NCBI GenBank assembly: GCA_040877915.1
Contig: JBBDNA010000009.1
Span: 15,003 to 79,002, forward strand
Direction: 5' to 3'
Source: Dehalococcoidia bacterium
GTDB lineage: Bacteria > Chloroflexota > Dehalococcoidia > SM23-28-2 > RBG-16-64-32
Length of the DNA: 64,000 nt
Shown: positions 11,281-62,363 of the stretch, in pieces
Layout of the letters: every line of letters starts with the position of its first letter
How positions within the stretch are numbered: position 1 is the stretch's first letter
Made by a program: the position numbers and the translations under genes
The notes under the pieces: model-generated
Told to the model about the DNA's origin: nothing
The model's input: only the letters and a program-made list of their open reading frames with translations
The model's database searches: none

Positions 11281-11310
11281 TTGACCGCGCCGAATGGCGA
11301 GGCTTAGAAT
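11281..11310 (+). promoter_or_regulatory. Candidate sigma70-type promoter of the sulfatase-FGE operon
   Basis: TTGACC (11281-86), an 18-nt spacer, then TAGAAT (11305-10), 66 nt upstream of ATG 11377. The perfect palindrome GGTGTC-GCCG-GACACC lies immediately upstream. Confidence 0.4.
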
Positions 11311-11376
11311 CGTCCTGCGTTCGAAATGCCCCGCCCCTCGGTTTCGGGCGCAATTTCCCCGCCTGGAGGAGCAGCC

Positions 11377-13677: not shown

Positions 13678-13686
13678 CGGCGCGCC

Positions 13687-14637: not shown

Positions 14638-14755
14638 CCGCGACGATTTCCGGCGAACCGGCCTACGCGCTGGCGGATGCGGTACGGCTGCTCCATAATT
14701 AGTGGCCGAGATCAACGTTGCATCTAGCTGGACACGCATCCGGGAGGTATACGGC

Positions 14756-15574
14756 ATGGCGAAGCGGATTCTGGTTACGGGGGCGGCAACGGGCTTCGGG
14801 AGGGCGACGGCGCTGGCGCTGGCGAAGCGCGGGCACACAGTGATCGCGGGCGTACAGATCGCGCCGCAGATGACAGAGCTGATGAAGGCTGCCGCTGAGG
14901 CCGCTGTGCAGCTGAAAATCCAGGTGCTGGACATCACGGACGAGGGGGACCGGCAGGCGGCGTTGACCAACGAGGTAGACGTGCTGATCAACAACGCCGG
15001 CGTGATGGAGACGGGGCCGGTGGCCGAGATCCCGATGGAGAGGGTGCGCCGCAACTTCGAGACGAACGTGTTCGGGACGCTGGCGCTCACGCAGGCCTTC
15101 GCGCGGCAGATGGTGAAGCGAGGGTCCGGGAAGATCGTGATGGTGACGTCCATGGGCGGCCTGGTCACGGTGCCGTTCGCGGGCGTGTACTGCGCGACCA
15201 AGCACGCGCTGGAGGCACTGGCGGAAGGGTTGAAGGCGGAGCTTGCCGGTACCGGCGTGGAAGTGTGCACGGCGAACCCGGGCGTGTACGGCACGGGCTT
15301 CAACGATCGGGGAGCGGAAACGATGATGCGGTGGTTCGACATGGGGAATTCACTGACGCGGCCTGAGGTGCTCGCCGCGGCGGCGACGGGGCTGGCCAAC
15401 CAGCTCGACCCGCAGTCGATGGTCGATGCCTTCGTCCGGATCGCCGAGGAGGACGGGTCGAAGTTCCGGAACGTCGTGCCGGACGGGACGGCGGAGTGGA
15501 TCAAGGAGATCCAGGCGAAGACGTGGGCCGCCGGTAAGGACGATGCGATCTGGAGCTCGCCGCCGGCGGGTTAA
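14756..15574 (+). CDS. SDR family oxidoreductase
   Basis: TGAATGFGRATA (TGxxxGxG), NNAG and YCATK (YxxxK). A GGGAGG RBS precedes ATG 14756. Confidence 0.85.
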   Translation: MAKRILVTGAATGFGRATALALAKRGHTVIAGVQIAPQMTELMKAAAEAAVQLKIQVLDITDEGDRQAALTNEVDVLINNAGVMETGPVAEIPMERVRRNFETNVFGTLALTQAFARQMVKRGSGKIVMVTSMGGLVTVPFAGVYCATKHALEALAEGLKAELAGTGVEVCTANPGVYGTGFNDRGAETMMRWFDMGNSLTRPEVLAAAATGLANQLDPQSMVDAFVRIAEEDGSKFRNVVPDGTAEWIKEIQAKTWAAGKDDAIWSSPPAG

Positions 15575-33143: not shown

Positions 33144-33301
33144 CCTGGCGTCTGGACGTCTCACCAGCGACCGTCCCCTGCAGCCCCGTTAGCGGTCGGT
33201 GGGAAGGCTCCTCCAAATCGCACTGGCCTATGTCCAGGGGCCAGTCGGTGTTACGGTGAATGTACGGGAATTCCAAGCGGGGTTCCCGGGGAGACAAATG
33301 C

Positions 33302-36504: not shown

Positions 36505-38946
36505 ATGGAGCCGCGCATCCAGTTCGCGAAGACGAGGGACGGCGTCAACATCGCCTTTTGGACAGCGGGGGAAGGCATGCCGTTTGTGGGCCTGCCCGCG
36601 CTCCCGTTCGCCACCAGCGAAGAGTGGCGCCTCCCCGAGCATCGCGGGTGGTACGCGCGCGTGGCCGAGAAGCGAAAGATCGTCCTGTACGATGGCAGGG
36701 GCACCGGGCTCTCCCAGCGCGACGTAAAGGACTTCTCGCTCGACGCTCAGATACTGGACCTGGAGGCCGTCGTTGACCACCTGGGGCTGGTGACTTTCGC
36801 GCTGGCCGCTCCGGCCATGGTCGGCCCGGTGGGCATCGCTTACGCGGGCAGCCGGCCGGAACGCTTGTCGCACCTTCTCTTATGGTGCGCCTGGGCGCGG
36901 GCCGCTGATGTGATGGGATCGCCGCAGTTTCAGGCCATGCTCTCGCTAAAGGATCAGGACTGGGAGATATTCACGGAGACGGCGGCGCACGTCCTCCTGG
37001 GGTGGTCAGCGGGTGAACGGGCACGCCAGGCGGCGGCCGCCTACCGGGAAAGCGTGGGAGAGGATACAGCGCGGGCGATCCTAGACGCGATGTTGCAGTT
37101 CGACGCCACAGGCTACCTTCCGCAGATCACATCGCCAACGCTGGTATGTCACCGGCGCCAGTTGGTTTTCCCAGCGCGCGACATCGCGACCGGCCTGGTC
37201 TCCAAAATACCGAACGCCCGGCTGGTCCTGCTAGACGGCGCGACGCTGCTGCCCTATGAGGGCGACGTGGAAGCTGCGGCGCGGGCCATCGACGAATTCC
37301 TGGGCGAAGGAGCAGCCGCATCGGCGGCAACAGTGCAGCCGCCTGCCGGCATGGCCGTCATCATGTTCGCCGACATAGTGGACTCCACAGAGCTGACGGA
37401 GCGGATGGGCGACGCCGCGTTCCGGGAAAAGGCGCGTGATCTGGATGGGGCGCTGCGAGCCGCGATCCGCGAGCGTGAGGGCGCGCCGGTGGAGGGGAAG
37501 CTGCTGGGCGATGGCGTACTGGCTGTGTTCAGCTCGGCGCGCCAGGCGATCGAGGCGGCGCTAAGGTGTGGGGAGGCGGGCGAGGTGAAGGGCCTGCCGC
37601 TGCACCTCGGCGTGCACGCCGGCGACGTAATCCGCGAGGAGCAGAACGTGTACGGCGGGGCGGTGAACATCGCCGCTCGGATATCCGCAGCCTCGGAACC
37701 GGGGGAGGTGCTGGTATCGGAGACCGTGCGGGGGCTGGCTCGAACCTCGGCGGACGTAGCGTTCGAGGACAGGGGCGAGCACGAGCTGAAGGGCGTCGCA
37801 GATCCGCTGCGGCTCTTCGCGGTGCAGCGAGGAGATGTCCACGAGGCTCGACGACCCAGCGACGCTCTCCCAGAGGCGCCGGCTACTGGCGGCTTGGATG
37901 AGCCGCCCATCCAGTACGCCGAGACGGCGGACGGAGTGAGAATAGCTTTCAGCGTCATCGGCGACGGGAGACCGATCGTCTTCATGCCTCAGTACCCCTG
38001 GAGTCACATCCAGAAGGACTGGGAGATGCCGGCCTTCCGCGGCTTCTGGACCGGCGCGGCACGAACGATGCGGGTCATCAGATACGATGCCAGAGGGACG
38101 GGTCTGTCGGATCGTGGCGTCGACGATCTTGCTCCTCAGGCGCACCTGCGAGATCTCCACGCTGTCGTCCAGAGCCTGGGCCTACAAAGCTTCGCCCTTA
38201 GCGGTGCGACCAGCGCCGGGCCATTAGCGATCGAGTATGCCGGGCGGCACCCTGACCGAGTCTCGCACTTGGTCCTGTGGTGTACATCCGCCAGAACAAG
38301 CGATATCTATCCGGCTGGGTCCGAGGCGCTGGACCAGATGGCGCTGACTGACTGGCATTTCTTCACCGAGGCGATCGCGCACTCGGCGTTCAGCTGGCTG
38401 CACGGCGAAGAAGCGAAGCAGATGGCGGAGTTCCTGCGTTCCTGTATCGCGCCGGGCACTTTGGTCGCAAGCATGCCTGCCTTCCGTAAGCACGACGCTA
38501 CGCCGTACCTCTCCAGCATTGCAGCGCGAACGCTCGTGATGACTCGGCGAGAGACACCGTACCTCGGTGTGGACGTGGCGCGCAGGCTCGCCTCTCAGAT
38601 ACGCGGCGCGCGGCTCGTAGTCGTGGAGGGGTCCTCCATAGCACCGGTAGGAAACGAGGCCGCCGTGCTGGACGTGGTGAGCGAGTTCGTTGGGGAGGAT
38701 GGCCAGGAGCCCGCCGGCAGAGAGGTCGCAGACCGGCCGATCAGCCTGACCGCTCGTGAGACCGAGGTGTTGAGCTTGCTCTCGAGCGGCTGCTCGGGTA
38801 AGGAGATCGCGGCACAACTGACGGTCAGCCTCTCCACGGTGCAGCGGCACATCGCCAACATCTACGCCAAGATCGGCGCCCGCGGCAGGGTGGAGGCTGC
38901 GGCTTACGCCATAAGGCACGGGCTCGTGCCGCCTCGCGACGCCTAG
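36505..38946 (+). CDS. multidomain regulator: alpha/beta-hydrolase fold, class III adenylate/guanylate cyclase domain, second alpha/beta-hydrolase fold, LuxR-type HTH
   Basis: Cyclase blocks VIMFADIVDSTE, EGKLLGDGVLAVF and GGAVNIAARIS. C-terminal LTARETEVLSLLSSGCSGKEIAAQLTVSLSTVQRHIANIYAKIG. The two ABH-like regions have degenerate nucleophile elbows (AAPAMVG, GATSAG). Confidence 0.8.
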   Translation: MEPRIQFAKTRDGVNIAFWTAGEGMPFVGLPALPFATSEEWRLPEHRGWYARVAEKRKIVLYDGRGTGLSQRDVKDFSLDAQILDLEAVVDHLGLVTFALAAPAMVGPVGIAYAGSRPERLSHLLLWCAWARAADVMGSPQFQAMLSLKDQDWEIFTETAAHVLLGWSAGERARQAAAAYRESVGEDTARAILDAMLQFDATGYLPQITSPTLVCHRRQLVFPARDIATGLVSKIPNARLVLLDGATLLPYEGDVEAAARAIDEFLGEGAAASAATVQPPAGMAVIMFADIVDSTELTERMGDAAFREKARDLDGALRAAIREREGAPVEGKLLGDGVLAVFSSARQAIEAALRCGEAGEVKGLPLHLGVHAGDVIREEQNVYGGAVNIAARISAASEPGEVLVSETVRGLARTSADVAFEDRGEHELKGVADPLRLFAVQRGDVHEARRPSDALPEAPATGGLDEPPIQYAETADGVRIAFSVIGDGRPIVFMPQYPWSHIQKDWEMPAFRGFWTGAARTMRVIRYDARGTGLSDRGVDDLAPQAHLRDLHAVVQSLGLQSFALSGATSAGPLAIEYAGRHPDRVSHLVLWCTSARTSDIYPAGSEALDQMALTDWHFFTEAIAHSAFSWLHGEEAKQMAEFLRSCIAPGTLVASMPAFRKHDATPYLSSIAARTLVMTRRETPYLGVDVARRLASQIRGARLVVVEGSSIAPVGNEAAVLDVVSEFVGEDGQEPAGREVADRPISLTARETEVLSLLSSGCSGKEIAAQLTVSLSTVQRHIANIYAKIGARGRVEAAAYAIRHGLVPPRDA
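38800..38929 (+). repeat. direct repeat copy 1 (LuxR-HTH coding 3' end), near-identical to 40468-40597
   Basis: A 95-nt perfect match (38800-38894 = 40468-40562) is followed by 35 nt with 3 mismatches. The rest of the two genes is far more divergent. Confidence 0.9.
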
Positions 38947-38991: not shown

Positions 38992-40614
38992 ATGGAGCGC
39001 GAAGTCCGCTACTGCACGACCGAGGACGGTGTCCGCATCGCCTACTGCGTGGAAGGCGACGGGCCGCCGCTGGTGATGATCGCCTTCTTCATTGAGTCGT
39101 TCTCTCTCGACCACCTGCTGCCCGAGAGTCAGCAGTTCTTCCGGCGCCTGGGACAAGGTCGCCGGCTAGTTCGTTTTGACGCCCGCGGCACCGGCTTGTC
39201 GCAGCGAGACGTCGCCGATATGTCCACCGCTGCCCTCGTGCGCGACCTCGAGGCCGTCGTACGAGCGGCGGGCCTCAAACGCTTCTCCCTCTTTGTCGGC
39301 TCGGCGGGCGGTCCACGGGCCATCGAGTACGCGGCCCGACATCCCGGCCAGATGGACCGCCTGATCCTCCTCAGGACGTTTGCCCGGCTGCTGGACGTCC
39401 TCTCGCGGGATATGTTGGAGGGCTTGATACGGCTGGCGAGAGCCAATTGGGCGGTCGCTGCCCGCACCTTCGCCGATATGACCGCCAATGCGGCCAACCG
39501 CACGGAGTTTGTAGAGCCTATCTCGGCGTGGGCAGAATTGTGGAGGCAATCGTCCACCGGCGACGAGGCGGCCCGGCTCCTCGAGCAGCACATCGAAGTA
39601 GACGTGACCGCTCTGCTGCCCCGGGTGAAAGCCCCCACCCTTGTCATCTCTTATCCTGACGACGTTTTCTTTCCCGTGGCCCTGGGTCAACAACTGGCCG
39701 CCGCCATCCCCAACGCTCGCTTCCTCCCATTGCAGGGCAGGGTAGGGATTATAGGGTTTCCGGAGCCCGAACGCGCGCTCGACGCTGTCGACGCCTTCTT
39801 GAGGGAGGAAGGGCCGGCGCCGAATCCCCAGCGGGCCGACACCATCGCCGGCCGCAACGTTCTCACCGTCCTCTTCACTGACATCGTGGGGCACACGGAG
39901 ATGATGCAGCGCCTGGGCGATGAACGCGGGCGGGACGTGTTGCGCGAGCACGAGCGGATCACGCGCGAGGTGCTGAAGGCGCACGGCGGGACGGAAGTGA
40001 AGACGATGGGGGACGGGTTCATGGCCTCGTTTGGGAGCGTCACGCGGGCGGTGGAGTGCGCCGTGACATTGCAGAAGGCGTTCGAGGAGTGGAATGCGGG
40101 CGTAGGGGCGCAGCATGCTGCGCCCCTACGCGTGCGCGTCGGCCTCAGCGCCGGGGAGCCGATTGAGGAGGAGGGAGACCTGTTTGGGGCGACGGTGATA
40201 CTGGCGTCGCGGATCGCCGCGACGGCGGCGGGCGGCGAGATACTGGTGGCGAACGCCGTGCGGGAGTTGTGTGCGGGAAAGGATTTCGTGTTCGTGGATC
40301 GAGGAACAGAGGCGCTCAAGGGGTTCGACGAGCCGGTGCGGCTGTATGAGGTCGCGTGGTCAGAGGACAAGGTCGTCGCGCCGCCCAGCGCGGGGACTGG
40401 GCCAAGTGCGGCACTGACCACACGCGAGACAGAGGTCCTGGGCCTGTTGGCGGGCGGCCGGAGCGGCAAGGAGATCGCGGCACAACTGACGGTCAGCCTC
40501 TCCACGGTGCAGCGGCACATCGCCAACATCTACGCCAAGATCGGCGCCCGCGGCAGGGTGGAAGCGGCGGCGTACGCCATAAGGCACGGGCTCGTGCAAC
40601 CTCCCGGCGAATAG
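38992..40614 (+). CDS. multidomain regulator: alpha/beta-hydrolase fold, class III cyclase-like domain, LuxR-type HTH (paralogue of the preceding gene)
   Basis: Cyclase blocks TVLFTDIVGHTE, EVKTMGDGFMASF and GATVILASRIA, where the transition-state Asn is replaced by Ile. The LuxR HTH is identical to that of the upstream gene. The ABH elbow is GSAGG. Confidence 0.8.
   Translation: MEREVRYCTTEDGVRIAYCVEGDGPPLVMIAFFIESFSLDHLLPESQQFFRRLGQGRRLVRFDARGTGLSQRDVADMSTAALVRDLEAVVRAAGLKRFSLFVGSAGGPRAIEYAARHPGQMDRLILLRTFARLLDVLSRDMLEGLIRLARANWAVAARTFADMTANAANRTEFVEPISAWAELWRQSSTGDEAARLLEQHIEVDVTALLPRVKAPTLVISYPDDVFFPVALGQQLAAAIPNARFLPLQGRVGIIGFPEPERALDAVDAFLREEGPAPNPQRADTIAGRNVLTVLFTDIVGHTEMMQRLGDERGRDVLREHERITREVLKAHGGTEVKTMGDGFMASFGSVTRAVECAVTLQKAFEEWNAGVGAQHAAPLRVRVGLSAGEPIEEEGDLFGATVILASRIAATAAGGEILVANAVRELCAGKDFVFVDRGTEALKGFDEPVRLYEVAWSEDKVVAPPSAGTGPSAALTTRETEVLGLLAGGRSGKEIAAQLTVSLSTVQRHIANIYAKIGARGRVEAAAYAIRHGLVQPPGE
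40468..40597 (+). repeat. direct repeat copy 2 (LuxR-HTH coding 3' end)
   Basis: See copy 1 (38800-38929). Confidence 0.9.
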
Positions 40615-48560: not shown

Positions 48561-49258
48561 CGCTTCCGGCCCCAGGTGACGATGGCGCCGCCCAGCGAAA
48601 GCCGCCTCGACCGGACGTCCGCGAATCCGCACTTGCGCCAGATCTGCAGCAGCCGCTCCTCCGGCCAGAACTCGTAGAAGCTACGGATGCTCGGGCCCAG
48701 GAACGAGCCGACGAGGCGCCAGTTGGAGGAGAACAGAGCCCCGCCCAGAGGCAGGCCGACGGCGGTGTACAGTCGCCACAGTGGGTAGGCGACCCCGTGC
48801 GGCACGGCGAACTCCAGCGATGCCATGACGCCACCTGGTTTCAGGACCCGCGCGAGCTCGGCGATGGTGGCGGGCACGTCCTCAACGTAGCGGAGGAGGT
48901 ACGTAAACACGACCGCGTCGAAGGCTGCGTCCGCGAACGGCATCGCCTCCGCCGTGCACTCCGTGAGGTCGATGCGCGGTACCCCATTCCGTGCCGAGCG
49001 CGCCGCCGCCTGCATCAACATCGGGCGGGTGATATCGGCGGCGATCACCCGCAAGCCGTTCCGTGCATTCAGGCGGAGGGCGACGGCGCCGGTGCCGGTC
49101 GCCATGTCCAGGACACGACCCACGGCCTGGCCATCTAGCCGCGAGAGCAGGAAGTCGTGCCAGCGGGAGTACTGAAGAAGGCTAAGGAACTGGGCGGGCC
49201 GGTCGTAGTTGTCAGCGATAGGGGAGAAGATTTGACGGGGTGCGGCGGCGGCGGGCAT
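48557..49258 (-). CDS. class I SAM-dependent methyltransferase (UbiE/COQ5-like)
   Basis: FSPIADNYDRPAQFLS, VLDMATGTGAV (motif I) and LKPGGVMASLEF. A GGAGAT RBS precedes ATG 49258. Confidence 0.8.
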   Translation of the reverse strand: MPAAAAPRQIFSPIADNYDRPAQFLSLLQYSRWHDFLLSRLDGQAVGRVLDMATGTGAVALRLNARNGLRVIAADITRPMLMQAAARSARNGVPRIDLTECTAEAMPFADAAFDAVVFTYLLRYVEDVPATIAELARVLKPGGVMASLEFAVPHGVAYPLWRLYTAVGLPLGGALFSSNWRLVGSFLGPSIRSFYEFWPEERLLQIWRKCGFADVRSRRLSLGGAIVTWGRKR

Positions 49259-49454
49259 CGGATCTCCGGTCTTGGGGCGGCGCGCTGCCCATTGTAGCAC
49301 GCATGGAATTGCGGCCTCTGGCGGCGGCTTAACGCCCTGACCCGGCTGATGTAGGCTGGCCCCGCTGGAGTCGTCGGTGGGTTACCCCCCGGCCCGGATG
49401 ATAACGATCCCTCGGGCCGCGGCCTAGCCCCCTTACGGTTGGCCCCCGGCGGCT

Positions 49455-50094
49455 TCGACTCCTCGGGCAATCCGAGCAGCTCCACCGCCCTACGCACGTT
49501 GTCAGGGCTGATGGCGATGAAGTGGTCCATCCCGGCGGCCGCACGGTTCATCTCCTCCCTCCATAACGCTGACCAAGATCCGGCAACGTTCCCGCTCGCC
49601 ATCTCCTCCAGCATCTTGAGCTCGGTCCCGTGGAGGTGGGCGATCTTAACAGCATCTCTCAAGGAGGGCTGCCCGAGCGCTGCCGAGTGAAGGTGGTTCA
49701 GATGGTGCAAGTGGAGAACATGGAAGCTGGACCGCGCGCCCGCATGCGAGAGCACGCCACGCCAGCTAGTTGCTAGAGCTCGGAGTTGCTGCGGGCCCAC
49801 CTTGTGAAAGGCGCGGTCCGGCACCCCGGGCTTGTCCTCATAGCTGGGATGCATAGGGACCGCCAGCTCGGGCGACATCGGATCGCGGCCGGCGTCAAAA
49901 CCCTTGATCGCCTCCGTGTAGTCCACCTCCAGCAGCGGGAGGCCCGAGTAGAAGCTGCGGGAGTCCGCCCCCGCCTCGGCGCCCCTCAAGGAGCCAGAGG
50001 CCACGGTGACATCGTGTCCTCGCTCCGTCAGGGCTCGGGACAAGTAACGCACCACTTGCGCGCTGCCCCCTCGCGGGTAGAAGACGATCCCCAT
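49455..50094 (-). pseudogene. GT4-family glycosyltransferase, N-terminal half only (3'-truncated)
   Basis: MGIVFYPRGGSAQVVRYLSRALTERGHDVTVASGS...HFIAISPDNVRRAVELLGLPEES. The ORF then continues as low-complexity sequence overlapping the next gene, and the C-terminal GT-B domain is absent. Confidence 0.5.
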
Positions 50095-50195
50095 CAGGAC
50101 TCGAAGACCCCCTGTGCTCTCAGGGGATGGCTGCAGGACTATTCGACGCTGCGCGGTACACCACCTCCCGCTCTCGATTCGCCCGGGCCGCGGTC

Positions 50196-50335
50196 ATGTT
50201 GACGCAACGCCGAGGGCTGGTCAAGCGTCGATCTTGTGTGACACACGCTAGCCCGGTCATTACGGCATTTTCGGCCAAGTGTTGTACCGGTAAGACGACC
50301 ATCGCCATCAACCTTGCCGTCGCCGCCAGCAAGCG
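50196..50335 (+). pseudogene. possible ParA/MinD-like P-loop ATPase N-terminal fragment (weak)
   Basis: PVITAFSAKCCTGKTTIAINLAVAAS resembles VIAxxSxKGGxGKTTxAxNLA with GG replaced by CC. It is truncated where the opposite-strand ATPase fragment ends. Confidence 0.2.
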
Positions 50336-50821
50336 GGCGTCCGCGGGAACACGATCGCCGCGCTGCACGGCGACTGTGTCGCCGGGCACGATGGCATTGG
50401 CCTGTATCCTGTGCGCCACTCCGTCCCGGAACACCCGTGCTCCCAGGGGCACTCGTCGGTGAAGGGCCTGAACTAGCTCGCTGGCCCTGTACTCCTGCCA
50501 GAAGCTGAATGCCCCGTTGATGAGGACGATGGCGATTATCGCCCAGCCGAGCTGCGGTAGTTCGGCCAGGAAGGCCAACAGGGCGGCGGCCCAGAGCATA
50601 AGCGCCAGGATGTGGCTGATCTGACCGAGGATGAGGCGGAAGAGATGGGAAGTCCGTGCTGCGGGAAGCTGGTTGGGCCCGAAGCGCCGCAGCCTGCGCT
50701 CGGCTTCCTGGCTGGACAGGCCGGCCAGCTGCGCGCCCAGCGCATCGAGGATCTGGTCTCGATCGAGCGTGACAGCCTCTGCCGGAGAAGGGACGAGGCC
50801 GTCGCCGGAACCCGGTGTCAT
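50320..50821 (-). pseudogene. P-type cation ATPase, N-terminal ~165 codons only (3'-truncated)
   Basis: GLSSQEAERRLRRFGPNQLP (Cation_ATPase_N), TM1-2 and the start of the actuator domain (IVPGDTVAVQRGDRVPADARLLAA). Similarity then stops. Confidence 0.6.
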
Positions 50822-51108
50822 TGTCTGGCTGGGACCTCCGATCTGGGCCGTTGTCAGCTAAATTATGCCTGACTTCGCCCAGCAGGTGTTTCAACCGGTC
50901 AAGTTTAATACCGAGCTAGCGACTCCAAGGGGCGGGCCGACGACGTCGCCTAGACGTGCCACGCCGCCGACGCCAGACCGGCGGTGGCGCCGGACACGTT
51001 CGCGGACGACCGCTAGAACCGGCTGACCCAGGCCGCCAGCGATCCAGGGTTCAGTGCGAAGTCATGGCCACCAGGTATCGCTGCCGTCCCTCAGGCGTTA
51101 TAATCTGT

Positions 51109-51114
51109 GGAGAC
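51109..51114 (+). promoter_or_regulatory. TATAAT -10 box about 10 nt upstream of the riboswitch closing helix
   Basis: A perfect TATAAT is rare in this GC-rich window. No convincing -35 is present. Confidence 0.4.
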
Positions 51115-51119
51115 AAGAT

Positions 51120-51250
51120 CAAAGATGCCGCCGAACTCCCACTCAAATGGGAAGCGGGCGAACCGCGTCCAGGTGAATCTCGCACAGGCGAGTAGGGCAA
51201 GCCTTTCAGCCCGAACCGTGAGCTAAGCCCGCAGGCGTAGGAGAGGCCTC
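51120..51250 (+). ncRNA. candidate c-di-AMP riboswitch (ydaO/yuaA class)
   Basis: Hand-folded elements:
- Closing helix AUGCC / GGCGU.
- GCCGAAC followed by hairpin UCCCA...UGGGA.
- GCGGGC (51154-59) pairs with GCCCGC (51227-32).
- GAACC.
- GGUGAAUC followed by hairpin CUCGC...GCGAG.
- UAGGGC...GCCC.
- CCCGAACC and AGCUAA.
The order and sequence of the blocks match the remembered ydaO consensus. Confidence 0.7.
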
Positions 51251-51316
51251 TTGTTACGACGGCGGCGGGTTGCCTCCCGCCGACCGCCCAACCGAAGTCG
51301 TATTGGAGGTCGTTGC

Positions 51317-52441
51317 ATGAGAATCCTTCAAGTCGCACCCTTGTGGGAGAGGGTTCCCCCGCCCGCATACGGCGGGACGGAGGCTGTCGTCAGTGTACTC
51401 ACCGACGGCTTGGTGCGGGCTGGCCACGAGGTCGTGCTCTGCGCCTCGGGCGACTCTTTGAGCCTCGCCACGGTTTCGTCGGTCTACCCCCACAGTCTGC
51501 GCACCGCCCACGGGATCAAGGACGGTACGCCGTACGACTGGGTGCACGCCGCCGAGGCGATCCAGGCGAGCCGCGAGTTCGACGTCGTCCATAACCACGC
51601 GGGCGAGCCGGTGCTTGCCCTGGCCGGCCTCACTGAGACGCCAATGCTGACTACGATGCACTGCCTGATCACCCCGGACACCAGGATCGTCTGGGACCGC
51701 TACGCGGGGCACTACAACACCGTCAGCCGCGCCCAGCTTCGCGCTCTCCCGGCGCTGGAAAGAGCCCGCTACGCCGGCGCGGTTCACAACGCGATTGACG
51801 TGGCGAGTTTCCCCTTCACAGAGATCAAGGAGGACTACCTCCTGTGCCTCAACCGGATAGCGCCTGAGAAGGGTACCCACCTGGCCGTCGAAGTGGCCCG
51901 TAAAACGGGCCGTAAGCTGATCATCGCCGGCAAGGTGGACCGGGTGGACCGAGACTACTACGAGGGTGCGGTCGCGCCCCTCGTCGATGGACAGCAGGTC
52001 GCCTACGTGGGCGAAGCGGACTCCACGATGAAGAGGGACCTCTACGCTGGGGCGGCCTGCTTGCTAAACCCCATCTGCTGGGAGGAGCCCTTCGGCCTCG
52101 TGCCGGTGGAGGCGATGGCCTGCGGCACTCCCGTCATCGCCTTCTCCCGAGGGGCGATGCCGGAAGTCGTCATTGATGGCGAGACCGGCTTTCTCGTCCG
52201 GGACGTCGACTCCATGGCGGCTGCGGTTGAAAGGATCGACTCGATAGAGCCGGTAAGCTGCCGCAATCACGTTGAAGCGAACTTCGACGTTCCCGTGATG
52301 GTTGAGGGCTACTTGCAGCTCTACCGAGAGATCGTGGAGCCCCGGGCCCACCTGCGGGCACGGCCACCAGTGGAGCCCGTGCCAACGTTCTACAGTAGGG
52401 ACGGAGAGGCCGCCGAGCGGGCGACCGTTCTGAGAGGGTGA
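51317..52441 (+). CDS. GT4-family glycosyltransferase
   Basis: MRILQVAPLWERVPPPAYGGTEAVVSVLTDGLVRAGHEV and the C-terminal E(x7)E-like region (WEEPFGLVPVEAMACGTPVIA). A GGAGG RBS precedes ATG 51317. Confidence 0.85.
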   Translation: MRILQVAPLWERVPPPAYGGTEAVVSVLTDGLVRAGHEVVLCASGDSLSLATVSSVYPHSLRTAHGIKDGTPYDWVHAAEAIQASREFDVVHNHAGEPVLALAGLTETPMLTTMHCLITPDTRIVWDRYAGHYNTVSRAQLRALPALERARYAGAVHNAIDVASFPFTEIKEDYLLCLNRIAPEKGTHLAVEVARKTGRKLIIAGKVDRVDRDYYEGAVAPLVDGQQVAYVGEADSTMKRDLYAGAACLLNPICWEEPFGLVPVEAMACGTPVIAFSRGAMPEVVIDGETGFLVRDVDSMAAAVERIDSIEPVSCRNHVEANFDVPVMVEGYLQLYREIVEPRAHLRARPPVEPVPTFYSRDGEAAERATVLRG

Positions 52442-52446
52442 CAACT

Positions 52447-52737
52447 ATGAGGGTACTGCGGCCGATAAACCAGACTTACAGCCCACTGGTGCAAGAGGAG
52501 GAACTTCGGCGCCGGCTTCGGGCGGCAGGCGTGTGCGACTCCTCAAAGGTGCGACTGACTGTGACGGCTCACAGGCTTTTCGTCGATGGCTTCGTCGACA
52601 GTGTGGATGAGAAGCTCAGAGTGGAGAGGGTGTGCCATCAGCTGGCGCCCGCCAGCAGTGTTGTGAACCGGCTCCGTGTCGCCGCCGCCGCCGAAGGAGA
52701 CAATCGGCCGACGCTTGATGTCTCCGCCACACGCTAA
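52447..52737 (+). CDS. BON-domain protein
   Basis: KVRLTVTAHRLFVDGFVDSVDEKLRVERVCHQLAPASSVVNRLRV fits the BON pattern. A GAGGG RBS is present. Confidence 0.55.
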   Translation: MRVLRPINQTYSPLVQEEELRRRLRAAGVCDSSKVRLTVTAHRLFVDGFVDSVDEKLRVERVCHQLAPASSVVNRLRVAAAAEGDNRPTLDVSATR

Positions 52738-52785
52738 TTGATATCAGGAGGACCGCTTAAGGGTCCCCACGGCGTAACTTGGCGC

Positions 52786-54933
52786 ATGCTTCCGGAAGGG
52801 GAGGCCCGCGTCATCGAGGACATCCGGGACGCACTCGTCATCCGCGAGGACGGGTTGTTCCTGCTGACTGACAGCGACGGCAGCATCCCCGCCAAGAACG
52901 ACAGTGGATTTGGCCTCTACCACAACGATACGCGATACGTCTCCACCTGGGAGCTCTCCCTGATCGGTGTCGAGCCCATCGTCCTCGTCTCTACCGCTGA
53001 GCTGGGCTTCGGGCAGGAGCAGGTGATGACCAACCCAGAGCTCATAAACGAACAGGGAGAGACGCTGCCGAGTGGCAGCCTGGAGATCCGAAGGCAGCGC
53101 GTCCTGGATCAGGGACTCATTGAAAGCGTGCGGGTCACCAACTTCGCTACCATTCCGCTGAATCTGACCCTTCAGTACGAGTTCGACGCCGATTTCGCGG
53201 ACATCTTCGAACTCCGGGGCCTGCGGCGCCGTCGGCGGGGGCGCTTCCTTAAGACGCGCCTCCATCGGGCGGCAGTCACGTTCGCCTACCGTGGCCTGGA
53301 CGAGCTAACCCGACGCGTGAGGATTCAGTTTCGGCGCGAGCCCAACGTGCTCAGGCGTCACGGCGCGATCATCCACCTGAAGCTGAAGCCGGGGAAGTCT
53401 GAGGAGATCGGCGCCGCCATAGTGGTGGACCTTCCCGGCGGTGCCGGCACTGGCTCAGCACGGCAGTCCGCAGTAAGCGTGGGAGATAGCCACCGACAGT
53501 GGAGGGAATCCAGCGCCCGCATTCTCACCAGCAACGACCTGTTCAACGCCGCTATCGATCGCTCGATTGCTGACCTGCGGCTGCTGTGGACCGAAAATGG
53601 CCCGGACCTGAGTTACGTCGCCGCCGGCGTCCCCTGGTTCGACACCCTCTTCGGCCGCGACTCGGCCCTGGCAGCCTACATGTCGCTGGCCTATCGACCC
53701 CAGATGGCCCGCGACGTCCTTCGCTGCCTGGCTCGCTTCCAGGGCACGGTGCTGGACGATTCCCGTGAGGAGGAGCCGGGAAAGATCGTCCACGAGACCC
53801 GAATGTGCGAGACGGCAAACACTGACGAGGTGGTGTTCGGCCGGTACTACGGCAGCATAGATTCAACACCCCTGTTCATCATGCTCGCGGCGGAGTACTA
53901 CCGTTGGACTGCGGATCTCGAGCTCATGCGCGAGATGCGGCACTCCCTGGACGCTGCGTTGGCCTGGATGGACAGTTCCGGCGACATGGACGGCGATGGC
54001 TACCTGGAGTACCGGAAGAAAACCCCCCATGGTCTGGACAACCAGGGCTGGAAGGATTCCGGGGACGGCATCGTCGATGCAGACGGCAATCTTCTGGAGC
54101 CGCCCATAGCCCTTGTGGAAGTCCAAGGTTACGCATACGCTGCGAAACACGCCATCGCCGATGTGTACGATGCGCTGAGCGATGGCCCGCGCGCGCGCCA
54201 ACTGCGGCAGGATGCGGCGGCACTGCGCCGACGCATCAATGCCGACTTCTGGACGGACGAAGGCTACTATGCCCTAGCGCTGGACGCGGACAAGAGACCG
54301 GCGAAGGTGCCCACGTCCAACGCTGGCCAGCTCCTCTGGTGCGGGGCCGCGACGCGGCAGAAGGCGCGGCGCCAGATCGGGCGGCTGATGCGCAACGACA
54401 TGTTCAGCGGCTGGGGTATACGGACCCTGAACACCGGTGCCAGGCGATACAACCCGCTGGGCTACCATCTGGGGACAATCTGGCCCCACGACAACGCCCT
54501 GATCCTGGCCGGTCTCAAGCGGTACGGGGCCGAGGCGGAACTCAACGAAATCGCGACGGCCTTGTGCGATGCGGCGTTTGCTTTCCCCTACTTTCGTCTA
54601 CCGGAGCTGTTTAGCGGCACCCCGCGCGCGGCCCACCAAGCGCCGGTGCCGTATCCTGTGGCCTGCAGGCCACAGGCATTCGCTGCGGCGGCACTGCCCT
54701 ACCTCCTAACCTCCGTCCTCGGCCTAGCACCGGACGCCCCTCAGGGGCGGCTGTCTATAGTAAAGCCCAGGCTGCCGTTCTGGCTGGACTTCGTTCGCGT
54801 GTCCGGCCTGCGGGTGGGCGAGGTAACGCTGGACCTCATCTACCACCGCCGAAGATCGCGCACCATAGTGGAGGTCATCGGTCAGACGGGACCCCTTGAA
54901 ATCGTCCAGACGGACCGCTGGCCGGCGCGTTAG
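52786..54933 (+). CDS. amylo-alpha-1,6-glucosidase / glycogen-debranching-enzyme-like (alpha/alpha)6-barrel glycoside hydrolase
   Basis: N-terminal GDE_N-like region (FLLTDSDGSIPAKNDSGFGLYHNDTRY), the GVPWFDTLFGRDSALAAYM block and a C-terminal (alpha/alpha)6-like region (WPHDNALILAGL). The start is ATG 52786 or TTG 52738. Confidence 0.8.
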   Translation: MLPEGEARVIEDIRDALVIREDGLFLLTDSDGSIPAKNDSGFGLYHNDTRYVSTWELSLIGVEPIVLVSTAELGFGQEQVMTNPELINEQGETLPSGSLEIRRQRVLDQGLIESVRVTNFATIPLNLTLQYEFDADFADIFELRGLRRRRRGRFLKTRLHRAAVTFAYRGLDELTRRVRIQFRREPNVLRRHGAIIHLKLKPGKSEEIGAAIVVDLPGGAGTGSARQSAVSVGDSHRQWRESSARILTSNDLFNAAIDRSIADLRLLWTENGPDLSYVAAGVPWFDTLFGRDSALAAYMSLAYRPQMARDVLRCLARFQGTVLDDSREEEPGKIVHETRMCETANTDEVVFGRYYGSIDSTPLFIMLAAEYYRWTADLELMREMRHSLDAALAWMDSSGDMDGDGYLEYRKKTPHGLDNQGWKDSGDGIVDADGNLLEPPIALVEVQGYAYAAKHAIADVYDALSDGPRARQLRQDAAALRRRINADFWTDEGYYALALDADKRPAKVPTSNAGQLLWCGAATRQKARRQIGRLMRNDMFSGWGIRTLNTGARRYNPLGYHLGTIWPHDNALILAGLKRYGAEAELNEIATALCDAAFAFPYFRLPELFSGTPRAAHQAPVPYPVACRPQAFAAAALPYLLTSVLGLAPDAPQGRLSIVKPRLPFWLDFVRVSGLRVGEVTLDLIYHRRRSRTIVEVIGQTGPLEIVQTDRWPAR

Positions 54934-55219
54934 TGTTAGGCATCGCCTCCGCAACTGATTGACTGGGTCCCGTTGAGGATGACACCTTAGGAAACGGACA
55001 GCCGCGGGCTAACAGTCAATGAGTTTGGGCTAGTGTGAAGGCCTCGACGACATGCGAGCCTGGGCTGCATCAGGATGCTTGTTCAGCCAAGTGAATTCTC
55101 CCCCGAAGATGGGCGCGCTCGAGTCGGCCACCGTCAACACCCAGACCCCAGAGTGGCGGTATTTCTAGTGGTTGCTAGCGGCCGGGCTTATACTGTCCAT
55201 CGTTCGTGCAGGCAGGGGC

Positions 55220-55635
55220 GTCACCGGTGAGGGACTACACGTACGACGGCGCCGGCCGTCTGGAGAGAGCGTCGTCAACACGGACCCCACGCCGGCCACC
55301 ATCTCCAGCTTCGACTACACCCTGGACGCCGTGGGCAACCGGACACCGACGACGACGGCGACGGCTCGTCGGACCTCAGCGAGGGTTACGTCTCGTCTGA
55401 CGGGCTTGACCGCTGCCCGGTCACGGCGGGTCACGATGCCTGGCCCCCAGACTCCGACGGTAACGGCCAGGCCAACGTCGGAGACGTTATCTCACTGTTT
55501 GGGGGTGGCAAGATACTGCAGTCGACGGGCCAGACGTTCTATTCCCGCCGCTCGGATGCTGACGCGAGTGGAGCGGTGAACGTCGGGGACGTCATCGGCC
55601 TTTTTGGCGGAGGGAACATTCTGGCTAGCTGCTGA
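55220..55635 (+). pseudogene. multiply frameshifted remnant: YD repeats followed by dockerin-like Ca-binding repeats
   Basis: VRDYTYDGAGRLERA in one frame and ISSFDYTLDAVGNRT in a second. The third frame reads DTDDDGDGSSD...DAWPPDSDGNGQANVGDVISLFGGG...DADASGAVNVGDVIGLFGGGNILASC*. No start codon is present. Confidence 0.5.
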
Positions 55636-56814: not shown

Positions 56815-57834
56815 ATGGCTGGGTCGAGTCGACGCGGGTTCCTGCGTCAAGTCGCGAAGGTAGTCCCAAGCGTCGCTGCAGCGGCGGCCCTCGGCCACAT
56901 GGGGCTCGCCGGCGCCAAGCGCAGCAAGCCCGGGAGTGAATTCGAGGGCGATCCCGCCGTCTGGCGGGAGAGGTTTCTTGAGGCGGCTCGGGCAGCGAAA
57001 GAGGCAGGTCCCGCGGTGGACACCCTGCAAGCTCCGGTCAGTCCGTCCAAAGACGTCCCCATGGTTATGAACATCACCGAGGACGGGTTCATCCCGCTCG
57101 CAGAGGTTCGTACGCCTCGCTCCTCTCCATCGAAGGTTGCGGACATCATACGTATGCAGGAAGAGCTCCAGAAGGCGATGGAGAAGCCGATGAACCAGCG
57201 CAAGTGGATTATGGTGATAGACCTGCAGAAGTGCATCGGTTGCTCGGCTTGCACGATCTCCTGCAAGGCGGAGAACAATCTGCCACCCGGTGTCGTCTAC
57301 CGGCCAGTGATCGAAGAGGAGATCGGGGAGTTCCCCAACGTCACCCGGCGCTGGCTGCCACGCCCATGCATGCACTGCGACGACCCGCCCTGCACGGATG
57401 TCTGCCCGGTTGGGGCCACGTGGAAGCGCGAGGACGGGATCGTTGTCGTGGATTACGACGCGTGCATTGGCTGCCGCTACTGCCTCACGGCGTGTCCATA
57501 TGGGGCGCGCTATTTCGACTTCGGTGACAAGTACACCGACGATACTCCGGCGGTGCAGGCTTACGAGAAATCGCCCTCGCCGGAATACGGCAAGGAATGG
57601 ACGCGGGACGGTCAAGGGTCGCCGGTCGGGAACGCCAGGAAGTGCCAGTTCTGTATTCACCGGCTCGATGTCGGGATGTTGCCCGCTTGTGTGACGACTT
57701 GTATCGGTGAGGCCACATTCTTCGGCGACAAGAATGACCCAGACAGCCTCGTAAACGAACTAATAGCTAGCCCGAGGGTGATGCGCCTGAAAGAAGAGCA
57801 GGGCACGAATCCGAAGGTCTACTACCTGACATAG
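56815..57834 (+). CDS. 4Fe-4S ferredoxin-type subunit of a DMSO-reductase-family complex (TtrB/PsrB/NrfC-like), Tat signal
   Basis: SRRGFLRQV twin-arginine motif and multiple Cys clusters ([38 protein letters not shown]). An AAGGAGGG RBS is present. Confidence 0.85.
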
Positions 57835-57843
57835 GAGGGTGCC

Positions 57844-59127
57844 ATGAGATTGGATATCACACCAAAGCCCGTGGCGATCCCTCTGGGCATGATCTGGGTC
57901 GCGGCGTTTACCGCCGGGCTCGTTGGCATCGGTCTGCGCCTGACCAGCGGCCACGAGCTAGCGAACTACACGAGCAGCATCCCGTGGGGTCTGTGGGTCG
58001 CCGCATACGTGTACTTCGTTGGCCTCTCCGCCGGCGCCTTCCTTATCTCTGCCCTTATCTTCGTGTTCGGGATGAAGTCCCTGGAACCGATCGGAAAGCT
58101 AGCACTGTTTACGGCGCTGATGGCGCTGGTTGCCGCCCTGCTAACCATCTGGCTGGATCTCGGCCACATGGAGCGGTTCTACTACGTCTTCACCCGGGGC
58201 AACCCCGGATCGATGATGGCCTGGATGGTGTGGCTCTACACGGCATATTTCTTCTTGCTCATCATTGAATTTTGGGTCGCCATCCGCGGAGACCTTGTGA
58301 GCCAGTCATCCGAGGCAGGGTTGCGCGGCCGCGTTGCCTCGCTTCTTCTGGGTAAGTTCGGGCGGGCGTTCGGGCCGCGTCCGCGTCTTGCCGTGGCTCA
58401 TTCCTACGATCGGACGGGCGACCGCCAGATGCTGAAGATTCTTGGGAGCATCGGCGTGCCGCTGGCTATCGCCTTCCACGGTGGCGTTGGCGCTCTGTTT
58501 GGGGTGGTCGGCGCCCGGGGATACTGGAACGCGCCGCTCTACCCGCTTCTCTTCATCGTCGGTGCACTCGTATCCGGTGGCGGGCTGCTTACGTTTATTG
58601 TCGCCTTCCTGTGGCCTGAGAAGGGGACGGAAAAGCACAGGGAAATGGTCGTCACTCTCGGCCGGATGACTCTCGCCATGCTGGCCGTGTACCTGATCAT
58701 GGTCTGGGCCGAGTTCAGCATCACCCTGTACGCGGACATCCCGTCCGAAGCTGAGCCGCTGTACCAGATCCTCGGGGGGCCCTACCCATGGGTGTTCTGG
58801 GTCTTCCAGGTGGGCCTTGGGGCCGTCATTCCGATTGCGATCATGACCATACGCGGCAAGTCGATTCCCTGGGTGGGACTGGCGGCGGGCCTTGTGGCGC
58901 TTGGCTTCTTCGCGACGCGCCTCAATGTCGTCATTCCAGGCTTGCTCGAACCACAGTTGGATGGACTCGACACCGCGTACATCGACAACAGGCTGGAGTA
59001 CGAATACTTCCCCAGCGTCATGGAATGGCTGGTGCTCGCCTTTATCGGGTCGTTCGCCACGGGTCTTTTCTTCCTTGGCACGCGCCTATTGCCGCTGACC
59101 GACCAGAAACAGGAGGTGTCCCAATGA
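57844..59127 (+). CDS. NrfD/PsrC/TtrC-like polytopic membrane quinol-interacting subunit
   Basis: 427-aa ORF with 8-10 TM helices, lying between the FeS and catalytic subunit genes. An AGGAGGG RBS is present. Confidence 0.8.
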
Positions 59128-62100
59128 GCAAGGAGCACGGCGTCTTCGGAACACAACTAGACCGTCGGCAGATTATCAAGAGTTCAGCGCTCCTGGGCGG
59201 CATGGCAGCTATCGCGACACAGGCGCCATGGCTTCTTGATTTGATAGACGGCTCGCCTGCCCAAGAGATAGTCCCAGATGCGGAGTACCTCCAGGCCAGG
59301 CCGGAGAACATCATCTACAGCGCGTGTCAGCAATGCAATGGACAGTGCGGCATCAAACTGAAGATGAAGGACGGCGTTGTTGTTAAGGCAGATGGAAACC
59401 CATACAGTCCCTGGACAATGCGTCCTCATGTGGCCTACGATACGCCCCCCTTTGAAGTGGCGACCGTCGAAGGCGGAATCTGCCCGAAGGGGCAGGCGGG
59501 CATCCAGACTGGGGCTGACCCCTACCGTATCGTCAAGGTCTTGAAGCGCGCCGGGCCGCGCGGCGCAGGCAAGTGGCAGACCATCGAGTTCGCCACGGCC
59601 ATCGATGAGATCGTCAACGGCGGCAAGATATTCGCCGACGTGCCGGGGGAAGAAGACCGGCAGATCGCGGGCCTGAACGACATCTGGGCACTGCGTGACG
59701 CCGAGGTGGCCAAGACAATGGCGGCTGACGTCAGCAAGATCCTCGGTGAGAAGGACAAGGACAAGAAAGCGGGGCTGGTCGACAAGTTCAAGGCCGATCA
59801 CGCCGACAAGCTCGATCTTATGATCGACCCGGATCACCCGGACCTCGGACCCAAGAACAACCAGTTCGCCTTCGTCTGGGGCCGTCTGAAGGGCGGGCGG
59901 GGCGACTTGATCCCGCGCTTCACGAAGGACGCCTTCGGATCGGCGAACGCGCACGGCCACACGACGGTCTGCCAGGGCTCGTTGTACTTCACCGGCAAGG
60001 CGATGAGCGAGCAGTTTGTCGAGGGGAAATTCATCAACGGCAAGAAGTTCTTTTGGCAGGCAGACCAAGAGTCAGCCGAGTTCATGATCTTCGTGGGAGT
60101 GAACCCGTTTGAGGCCAGCCAGTCGCCACCTCTACGCGCCCGCCGCATCACTGCCGGCCTGGCCGATGGTGGACTGAAGTACGTCGTGGTCGACCCACGG
60201 CTCTCACGCACGGCGGCCAAGGCCTGGAAGTGGCTGCCGAGCGTTCCGGGGAACGACGCGGCGATTGCCCTGGCCCTAATCCGCTGGGTCATCGAAAACG
60301 GCCGCTTTGACGCCGAATTCCTCACGGCCGCCAATAAGGCGGCTGCGGCCGCGGCAGATGAACCATCGTGGTCCAACGCGACCTGGCTGGTGAAGATGGA
60401 CGAGAACGGCGAGCCTGGCAAGTTTCTCCGGGCGTCGGAGATCGGACTCGCCCAGAAGGAGACGCGAACCAACAAGGACGGCAACGAATGGGAGTTCGAT
60501 CCCTTCGTCGTCTCCCTGAACGGGCAGTTCGTTCCCTTTGACCCTAACGACGACAAGAACTCGGTGGTCGGCGACGTCCTGGTGGACGCGACGGCGGGCA
60601 ACATCAGGGTGAAGACCTCCATGCAACTCCTCTGGGAAGAAGCCTCATCCAGGTCTATCGAGGAGTGGGCTGAGATCGCGGGAGTGCGGGCGCGAGATCT
60701 CGAAGCCATCGCTGAGGAATTTGTCAGCCACGGCAAGAAAGCTGCAGTCGATGTGCACAGGGGCGTTGCTTCGCACACCAACGGCTTCTACAGCTGCGGC
60801 ACCTGGCTCAACCTGAACCTTCTCATTGGCAACTACGACTGGAAGGGCGGCATGACAGCCGGCGCCACGTACGACCAGGCCGGCACGAAGGAAGGCCAGC
60901 CCTACCCGCTTTCCAAGATGCACCCGGGAAAGACCACCAGCTTCGGCATCAGCGTCATCCGCCACGACGTCAAGTATGAGGACTCGACGCTGTTCGAGGA
61001 CTACCCGGCGAAGCGCCCGTGGTTCCCCCTGTCTAGCGACATCTATCAACAGATCTTCCCCTCGGCAGCAGATGCTTACCCCTACCCACTCAAGGCAGTG
61101 ATTCTGTACATGGGCACGCCCGCGTACTCGCTGCCGGCCGGCGACAAGGTCATCGAGATACTTGCCGATCCGGAGAAGATACCGCTCTTCATCTGCAGCG
61201 ACATCGTGGTCGGTGAGACCTCAATGTATGCGGACTACATTTTCCCCGACCTGCCTGTGTACGAGCGGTGGGAGTTTAGCGGGACCCACCCCAACGTCGT
61301 CTGGAAGGTGCAGCCCGTCCGTCAGCCGGCCGCCGCCTCACCCAATGAGACGGTCACTGTGTTCGGCGAGGAGATGCCCTGCAGCCTGGAGGCGCTCATC
61401 CTGGGCCTGGCCGAAAAGATGGGACTTCCCGGCTTTGGCCCCGGTGGCCTCGGCGACTACGGCGACTTCACCAGGTCAGAGGATCTGTACCTGAAGCAGG
61501 TGGCCAACGTGGCTCTGGGCCACAAAGCCGACGCATCAGAGGCGCTACCAGACGCCGATGATGCTGAGTTGGCCCTCTTCACGCTGAGTCGGCGTCACCT
61601 GCCACAATCCCAGTTCGATTCGGCCAGGTGGGTGTCAACCGTCAGCCCAGATCTGTGGAGGAAGGTCGTGTACGTTCTCAACCGTGGCGGGCGCTTCGAC
61701 GACTACGAGAGGGCCTATGATGGGGAACATCTCAAGAACAAGTACGGCGCTCTCATCAACATGTACCAGGAGAAGACTGCGGGCGTGAAGGACTCTATGA
61801 CCGGCAAGCACTTCAGCGGCATCCCGCGGTACTTCCCCGCTTACACCGATTCCCTTGGCAACCCTATAGACGACGAGGCCGACGGATATGATCTGCAGAT
61901 GATCACAGCCCGCGAGATCACCCACACCAAGAGCCGCACCGTCGGCAACTACTGGCTGCTCGGGATCAACCCGGAGGGGGTTTTCGCGATCAACAAGTTA
62001 GACGCCGAACGGCTGGGGCTGGAGGACGATGACAAGGTGAAGATCGTGTCTGCCAGCAACCCCGACGGCGTTTGGGATTTGAGGAACGGCACGAAAAAGC

Positions 62101-62363
62101 CGATGATCGGAAAGGTGAAGGTGATCCAGGGTATCCGCCCCGGAGTAGTCTCCTTTTCCCTGGGCATGGGCCACTGGGCCTATGGTTCAACTGACATCGA
62201 AATCGACGGAGAGGTGATAAAAGGCGACGATCGCAGGGCAAAGGGGTTACACGCCAATGCGGCGATGCGAACGGACACAGTCAACACCAATACCTGTCTG
62301 TCCGATCTTGTGGGCGGCAGCGCAGTGTTCTACGACACCCGCATCAGGCTGGTGAAGGTGTGA
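59124..62363 (+). CDS. molybdopterin (bis-MGD) oxidoreductase catalytic subunit, Tat-exported (TtrA/PsrA-like)
   Basis: ATGA overlap with the preceding gene and an [26 protein letters not shown] Tat signal, N-terminal FS0 motif CQQCNGQC and a size of ~1079 aa. The first ~112 codons of the track ORF are an artefactual upstream extension. Confidence 0.85.

Follow-up and report, generated by a model that had tools for sequence, protein, structure and literature searches.

Riboswitches of the c-di-AMP class are known from the leaders of B. subtilis ydaO/kimA, B. thuringiensis kdpFABC, Dehalobacter ablA, S. coelicolor rpfA and C. glutamicum nlpC. The locus described here, in a 64-kb stretch of DNA that we analysed as a whole and call the window, raises the question of whether such an RNA stands before an operon for a glycosyltransferase, a small BON-domain protein and a glycoside hydrolase, what these enzymes would make, and in which direction the RNA would control them. 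Besides this operon, the window contains dnaE and further chromosomal genes, and its BipA protein (33260-35179) is 92% identical to proteins from metagenome-assembled genomes of 'Dehalococcoidia bacterium'. All features discussed below lie on the + strand of the window, and loci of relatives are designated by L numbers.

The aptamer and its conservation

Searching the window with 4227 Rfam families on both strands returned a single match, to the c-di-AMP (ydaO/yuaA) family RF00379 on the + strand at 51119-51252. Because this match scores 70.2 bits (E 3.1e-14) against a gathering score of 38 bits, spans the full model (1-134 of 134) and is the only Rfam match in the window, the element stands far beyond chance, and we are highly confident that 51119-51252 is a c-di-AMP riboswitch aptamer of the ydaO/RF00379 class and predict that it binds this ligand. 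The aptamer itself is an ordinary representative of an established class; what is newly defined is its regulon. Folding stability alone was uninformative, with the minimum free energy of the whole leader being unexceptional (z -0.75).

Alignment to the covariance model resolves a nested core at 51129-51237 that is closed by P1 (CGCC/GGCG, 51129-32/51234-37) and contains the P2 hairpin UCCCA-CUCAAA-UGGGA (51137-52, paired at 51137-41/51148-52), P3 (GCGGGC/GCCCGC, 51154-59/51227-32), a GG/CC pairing (51172-73/51216-17), the hairpin CUCGC-ACAG-GCGAG (51179-92, paired at 51179-83/51188-92) and a last hairpin (51195-98/51209-12). The motifs named in the original prediction, among them GAACC (51160-64), GGUGAAUC (51172-79) and AGCUAA (51221-26), are found by reading the sequence where that prediction had placed them, the TATAAT box excepted. 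Its closing helix, AUGCC (51125-29) with GGCGU (51234-38), is present as letters and provides an alternative P1 register that is possible in the window because GCC is repeated; relatives read UAGUC at this place, however, and we rejected this register in favour of CGCC/GGCG, the one conserved in the covariance model and the orthologous leaders.

In c-di-AMP riboswitches, conserved junction nucleotides line two ligand pockets. The window segments GCCGAA, GCGGGCGAAC, GGUGAAUC, GUAGGG, CCCGAAC and AGCUAA fall on upper-case positions of the consensus and also match the construct that was crystallised. The loop of the last hairpin contains GCCUUU (51201-51206), which pairs with AGAGGC (51242-51247) within the purine-rich tail AGGAGAGGCC (51239-48), and the resulting pseudoknot is homologous to, and at the same position as, CUCCUUC/GAAGGAG in the ydaO RNA that has been crystallised (sequence given in PMC5393176).

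The glycosyltransferase (GT4) encoded after this leader has thousands of metagenomic relatives, and the loci of close relatives were examined for leaders of the same kind. RF00379 matches were obtained at 60-76 bits in L083, L086, L088 and L090, at 64.5 bits in L143 and at 46.9 bits in L091. A covariance model of our own, built from leaders with above-threshold RF00379 matches, gives the window aptamer 132.9 bits and also matches L103, L119, L123, L133, L140, L142 and, weakly, L093. Across an alignment of 13 leaders, standard pairs occupy 98% of 400 pair cells and fall to 32-50% when partners are slid as a control, five pairs are changed on both sides and the pseudoknot is paired in 93.5% of cells, figures that come from a phylogenetically narrow set of close relatives in an alignment fitted to the model and in which covariation is thin. 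The class, strand and extent put forward in the original prediction are thus borne out both by the Rfam match and by the orthologous leaders. No riboswitch was found in the close clusters L141, L084, L087, L092 and L145, in the clade at 56-64% identity, or in the 14 loci checked from a scan of contigs with distant GT4 genes (matches at or below 45% identity).

Compared with L142 and L083, the window aptamer is 83-85% identical, close to the 85-87% of first and second codon positions in the GT4 gene, whereas the rest of the leader, which comprises the expression platform, is 55-56% identical and GT4 third codon positions are 58% identical. Since the aptamer is so much better preserved than these neutral sites, it is, as judged from the sequences compared, under purifying selection. 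Upstream, a TATAAT that had been assigned to 51109-14 in fact lies at 51099-51104, where it forms a -10-like box of a candidate promoter with transcription expected to start near 51110; GGCGTTATAAT/GGCGTTATTAT stand at equal distance in L140, L142 and L083. Upstream of TATAAT no match to a -35 box was found, and a sigma-70 scan of 50500-52000 was negative.

The downstream genes and their relatives

Pfam agrees with the gene order of GT4, BON and glycosidase that had been read from the open reading frames. The first protein (374 aa, 51317-52441, ATG at 51317-19) carries Glycos_transf_1 (PF00534) and Glyco_transf_4 (PF13439), as expected for the GT-B fold of family GT4, and aligns over residues 1-339 with PDB 7FG9 at 308.8 bits (E 5e-91) and about 50% identity. 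That structure is TeGSS, the glucosylsucrose synthase (tll1591) of Thermosynechococcus, an alpha-1,2-glucosyltransferase that produces stress-induced glucosylsucroses (PMC9909042). The TeGSS residues Trp10, Tyr18, Arg179, Lys184, Trp254 and Glu256 described there are all identical in the aligned window protein, and in 16 relatives Y18, K185, W255 and E257 never vary, with R180 nearly invariant (90% or more); the window GT4 is a probable alpha-1,2-glucosyltransferase. Around the rim of the N-domain cavity, Tyr70, Glu74, Tyr97, Arg117, Thr119 and Asn122 of TeGSS correspond to G70, D74, E97, L117, T119 and T122 in the window, so that four to five of the six residues differ and the rim does not have the form of a sucrose or glucosylsucrose acceptor site. 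Because of these differences the acceptor may not be that of TeGSS.

The second gene (52438-52737, with a start at 52438 or 52447) encodes a protein of 96-99 aa, predicted to be cytoplasmic, whose match to the OsmY-like BON family of Pfam is marginal, at 29.0 bits with a cutoff of 27, and for which no NCBIfam match was found; the gene is kept between those for the GT4 and the hydrolase in relatives. The third gene (52738-54933, with a start at 52738 or 52786) encodes a hydrolase of 715-731 aa that combines GDE_N_bis (PF14742, 179 bits) with MGH1-like_GH (PF22422, 62 bits) and matches PDB 7VMA, TgAMY, the founding member of GH176 (E 2.5e-92). Another GH176 enzyme, from Arthrobacter humicola A8F5, is a strict alpha-1,2-glucosidase on kojioligosaccharides and selaginose (bioRxiv 10.64898/2026.07.01.735942), and from this enzyme, together with the co-occurring glucosylsucrose synthase (GSS)-like GT4 and kojibiose-phosphorylase-like GH65 genes described below, we infer a similar specificity for the window hydrolase. 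The GH176 family holds several large clusters without assigned function.

Among the matches listed, 38 of 80 loci in distant genomes, belonging to Actinomycetota, Alphaproteobacteria, Acidobacteriota, Chloroflexota and others, have the GT4 and GH176 genes side by side, and the two look like a functional pair. In eight of the riboswitch-bearing relatives (L086, L088, L090, L123, L133, L143, L103 and L119) a gene for a TreT-like protein of 440-470 aa comes after the riboswitch and is itself followed by the GSS-like GT4. The TreT-like protein matches the trehalose synthase 2X6Q of P. horikoshii with E 2.5e-94 and scores 351 bits on NF041139, below the equivalog cutoff; an assignment of this extra upstream GT4 as a sucrose-phosphate synthase was considered and rejected, the gene being TreT-like. 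Some clusters also contain a GH65 gene whose product is closest to kojibiose phosphorylase 3WIQ (E 1.6e-138) and which stands alongside GH176 in L085 and replaces it in L086 and L143/L144. Neither treT nor GH65 was found in the window.

Because three families of enzymes, unrelated to one another and each connected with alpha-1,2-glucosides, co-occur with trehalose synthesis, the clusters of the relatives point to a module for trehalose and alpha-1,2-glucoside solutes. The window operon has the look of a module that makes and trims alpha-1,2-glucosides, with stress sugars of the glucosyl-sucrose, glucosyl-trehalose or kojioligosaccharide type as its putative products, and the linkage to treT in relatives suggests trehalose as the GT4 acceptor. 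The absence of treT from the window, taken with a 66-residue treT remnant that L091 keeps between riboswitch and GT4, points to a loss of treT in the lineage of the window.

The expression platform and its polarity

Past the aptamer, GGCCUCU (51245-51251) can pair with GGAGGUC (51305-51311), a strand made up of the Shine-Dalgarno (SD) sequence GGAGG (51305-09), located 7 nt upstream of the ATG, and the following UC. This helix appears in unconstrained free-energy folds of the window, L140, L142 and L083, and in an RNAalifold consensus of the window, L142, L083 and L093 all seven of its pairs are kept in all four sequences. Inside it, individual folds and RNAalifold place a second helix, UACGAC/GUCGUA (51255-60/51298-303), in which comparison by hand finds one compensatory change, a U-A pair of the window being C-G in L142 and L083, and two further one-sided changes. 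This inner helix in turn encloses the G+C hairpin CGGCGGG-UUGCCU-CCCGCCG (51263-82), and in each of the leaders of this direct type a G+C hairpin is present whose loop is rich in pyrimidines and not conserved in sequence. We consider it fairly likely, from these folding models, that the leader of the window acts on translation through sequestration of the SD sequence by GGCCUCU/GGAGGUC. Control would then be exerted at translation initiation, with the SD buried in the helix when ligand is absent and the inner helix reinforcing the sequestration.

The hairpin at 51263-82 could instead act as a terminator, either lacking a U-tract or assisted by Rho, that is placed under aptamer control. It is a strong hairpin with seven G:C pairs that lies 11 nt past the aptamer, the leaders of relatives do use terminators, and in S. 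coelicolor rpfA premature termination depends on c-di-AMP (PMC10117811). Against this, no U-run follows the aptamer in the window, L140, L142, L083 or L093, a scan of 50500-52000 found no intrinsic terminator, and the sequence of the hairpin is not conserved among direct-type leaders while the SD helix is, which leaves transcriptional control of the window operon extremely unlikely.

The loss of treT also invites a reading in which the aptamer is an evolutionary leftover. If treT was originally controlled by a terminator in the ancestral leader, disappearance of both treT and that terminator could have left a GT4 operon that is constitutive or controlled in some other way; the window has neither treT nor a U-tract terminator, L091 with its treT remnant would be the intermediate, and the riboswitch is absent from the close clusters listed above. 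A relic would nonetheless be hard to reconcile with an aptamer that is conserved where neutral sites have diverged and still reaches 70 bits with its pseudoknot intact, or with a new SD-sequestering helix that is built on the aptamer tail and conserved in four independent direct-type leaders. We regard this reading as very unlikely, and a leftover or other mechanisms as unlikely even when taken jointly.

Sequestration of the SD sequence leaves the direction of control to be considered, and on this question the relatives are informative. Nine of them, comprising the eight treT-led leaders and L091, bear a terminator in which a hairpin and U-run directly follow the aptamer and the 5' arm is the pseudoknot tail, an overlap that was read from the sequences of eight of the nine, with six folded. 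In L103, for example, the terminator GGAAAGGCCUCACAC / GUGUGGGGCUUUUU folds with -29.6 kcal/mol (z -3.6). The terminator stems vary between clades, the overlap with the tail is kept, and no separate antiterminator is visible in these leaders. The window shows a comparable arrangement, in which the anti-SD strand shares GGC (51245-47) with the 3' strand of the pseudoknot; the overlap between aptamer and SD helix amounts to only 3 nt, and the pseudoknot (51242-47 with 51201-06), an element of the ligand-bound fold, would owe its strongest pairs to these first three anti-SD bases. Bound c-di-AMP would lock the pseudoknot, weaken the sequestering helix and raise expression (ON), and in the terminator-bearing relatives the terminator would form without ligand and the pseudoknot would compete for the GGC when ligand is present.

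Two leaders served as OFF-type controls, namely the Dehalobacter ablA leader, which is experimentally OFF and whose sequence was taken from the supplement of PMC9337991, and L147 (105 bits), the one real c-di-AMP riboswitch among five matches of a pattern scan of viral contigs; the other four were not riboswitches. In both controls the terminator lies 35-60 nt downstream of the aptamer, and since the 3' arm of this terminator mimics the loop strand of the pseudoknot, the free tail is predicted to act as an antiterminator there. Constrained folding agrees with ON polarity only weakly. With the aptamer blocked, the SD sequence of the window is about 0.4-0.65 unpaired at some positions and still mostly paired; with 3 nt blocked, the terminator hairpins of relatives lose 2-5 kcal/mol and still fold at about -9 kcal/mol.

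A conventional OFF switch can instead be built on the CCUCC of the hairpin loop, which the original prediction had proposed to pair with the SD. In such a switch the tail GGAGAGG (51240-46) would pair with GCCUCC (51272-77) in the absence of ligand and leave the SD free, and c-di-AMP would draw the tail into the pseudoknot so that CCUCC could pair with GGAGG (51305-09) and block translation. Cells are usually expected to make osmolytes when their c-di-AMP is low, a physiology that fits an OFF switch and counts against ON. The c-di-AMP riboswitches tested so far are moreover all OFF (PMC6488665, PMC9337991, PMC10117811), which disfavours ON polarity, and an analogous GGAG/CTCC/GGAG scheme has been proposed for C. 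glutamicum nlpC (PMC9960051). The letters in the window permit such a scheme, with GAGGC (51243-47) complementary to GCCUC (51272-76) and a loop that can pair with the SD, and all direct-type leaders have the pyrimidine-rich loop. Several observations nevertheless weigh on the other side: CCUCC is half buried in the 7-bp all-G:C stem of the hairpin, tail and loop are complementary only in part in L083 and poorly so in L142, their pairing is predicted by no fold, the fully conserved GGCCUCU/GGAGGUC helix is left unaccounted for, and treT-type relatives are given no escape from a terminator that starts on the tail. The CCUCC loop is therefore replaced as the best platform by GGCCUCU/GGAGGUC, which is kept in four independent direct-type leaders, and we see OFF control as a possibility of the lesser kind, to be taken seriously and yet rather improbable.

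By the usual overlap criterion, the overlap of the repressive helix with the pseudoknot tail predicts an ON switch, and with the tested members of the class counting in the opposite direction we place ON polarity of the window leader at an even balance. The best explanation overall, which we favour by a modest degree, combines a functional aptamer, located in the 5' leader of an operon with three genes on a Dehalococcoidia (Chloroflexota) chromosome, a platform that sequesters the SD sequence, ON polarity and an operon for alpha-1,2-glucosides. The broader proposal that the window leader and its treT-led relatives are the first ON-type c-di-AMP riboswitches is more tentative and falls slightly short of even; under it, high c-di-AMP, as a sign of a high K+ load, would, with the same degree of doubt, switch on the synthesis of neutral trehalose and alpha-1,2-glucoside solutes.

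Relation to known systems

According to the original prediction, an operon of this kind is not known as a target of the class, and this is correct in part. Our literature search found no link of a c-di-AMP riboswitch to treT, glucosylsucrose synthase, GH176, GH65 or Chloroflexota, and no paper on the alpha-1,2-glucoside and trehalose gene set as a target. Control of osmolyte synthesis as such is known, on the other hand: for cyanobacteria, a c-di-AMP riboswitch over osmoprotectant synthesis has been put forward (Nelson 2013, as cited in PMC5986932), and tandem Na+/c-di-AMP riboswitches control the osmolyte synthesis genes ablA, eam and dapB (White et al. 2022, PMC9337991). The latter systems and the window both place a c-di-AMP riboswitch over the synthesis of compatible solutes and not over their uptake. 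They differ in that ablA, eam and dapB belong to Firmicutes, act on amino-acid-derived osmolytes and have a demonstrated OFF terminator, whereas the window has predicted sugar osmolytes, a single aptamer and a different platform architecture.

The enzymes have counterparts of their own. TeGSS (tll1591) adjoins a sucrose-phosphate synthase and the GT4 of the relatives adjoins TreT, so that both stand beside an enzyme for the presumed acceptor disaccharide; no riboswitch has been reported for tll1591, whereas the window GT4 has one. The window hydrolase belongs to the same two-domain family as the A8F5 GH176 enzyme and TgAMY, with GDE_N_bis joined to an (alpha/alpha)6 barrel. The locus provides a context of osmotic or desiccation stress and alpha-1,2-glucosides for three little-understood groups, GSS-like GT4 enzymes, GH176 hydrolases and small cytoplasmic BON proteins. 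It also adds predicted enzymes of sugar osmolytes to a c-di-AMP regulon that already included transporters, cell-wall hydrolases and amino-acid-type osmolytes, and does so in the Dehalococcoidia, a class that is little known and for the most part uncultured. If ON polarity is true, the leader would be the first activating c-di-AMP riboswitch, the same aptamer would have been rewired from a terminator to SD control after gene loss, and Dehalococcoidia would have a second messenger that directly hands over from K+ to sugar osmolytes.

Set against the RF00379 class as a whole, the window RNA has the same helices, the same junctions and the same pseudoknot between loop and tail, and like other members it occupies the 5' leader of genes for osmotic adaptation. 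Its targets are enzymes of alpha-1,2-glucoside and trehalose metabolism, whereas known targets are K+ or osmolyte transporters and cell-wall hydrolases, and its host is an uncultured member of the Dehalococcoidia, unlike the known examples. The most consequential difference may be one of geometry. In the known class the repressive helix lies downstream and the tail serves as antiterminator, whereas in the window and its relatives the repressive helix begins on the pseudoknot tail itself, and for this reason the polarity may be inverted relative to the known class; the conservation of this overlap between pseudoknot and repressive helix also makes the polarity cheaply testable.

Upstream flank and alternative leader pairing

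Directly upstream of the predicted c-di-AMP riboswitch, and divergent from it, lie two ORFs on the - strand. The nearer one (233 aa, 50120-50821) corresponds to no more than the N-terminal portion of a P-type cation ATPase in the Pfam/family matches, and the next (319 aa, 49135-50094) carries the N-terminal GT4 domain alone. Both look truncated, either as pseudogenes or through frameshifts. Collinearity between the window and the 98%-identical relative L140 starts only at window position 50959, and therefore a rearrangement breakpoint is placed ~160 nt upstream of the aptamer.

In five of the relatives' leaders in which the riboswitch and an intrinsic terminator precede a TreT-like gene and then GT4 (L086, at 1888-1925, L090, L088, L123 and L133), an alternative second hairpin is possible just past the terminator. 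Rather than closing the terminator, its 3' arm GUGGGG can form a helix with a CCCCAC/CCCCAU that is conserved further downstream, and in all five this hairpin is without a U-run behind it. Such a structure might act in transcripts that read through, on the stability of the mRNA or on the translation of treT.

Possible downstream end of the operon and GH65 in related clusters

Within the riboswitch-treT-GT4 cluster of the related loci L085, L086 and L143/L144, a kojibiose-phosphorylase-like GH65 is found beside GH176 or in its place. This apparent non-orthologous substitution of GH65 for GH176 supports alpha-1,2-glucoside chemistry.

In the window, a 135-aa candidate ORF without a family match in Pfam lies 3' of the GH176 gene (55172-55607, + strand). 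Directly past its stop, a weak terminator-like site, GTCGGGGACGTCATCGGC then CTTTTTGG (55582-55599, + strand), is a tentative candidate for the operon end.

Other genes of the window

Two neighbouring paralogues (36505-38946 and 38992-40614, both + strand) share a three-domain combination of alpha/beta-hydrolase, adenylate/guanylate cyclase and LuxR-type HTH. A very long ORF of 2337 aa (8491-15504, - strand) carries its Pfam domains in the C-terminal third, comprising GNAT acetyltransferase, CoA-binding, succinyl-CoA-ligase-like and ATP-grasp domains, and a Pfam search of residues 1 to ~1450 returned no match; the C-terminal third is similar to Pat / ADP-forming acyl-CoA synthetase. Downstream of the operon, genes for a 4Fe-4S protein, an NrfD-type membrane subunit and a molybdopterin oxidoreductase form a cluster (56815-62363, + strand) that resembles a polysulfide/tetrathionate-reductase or alternative-complex-III module.
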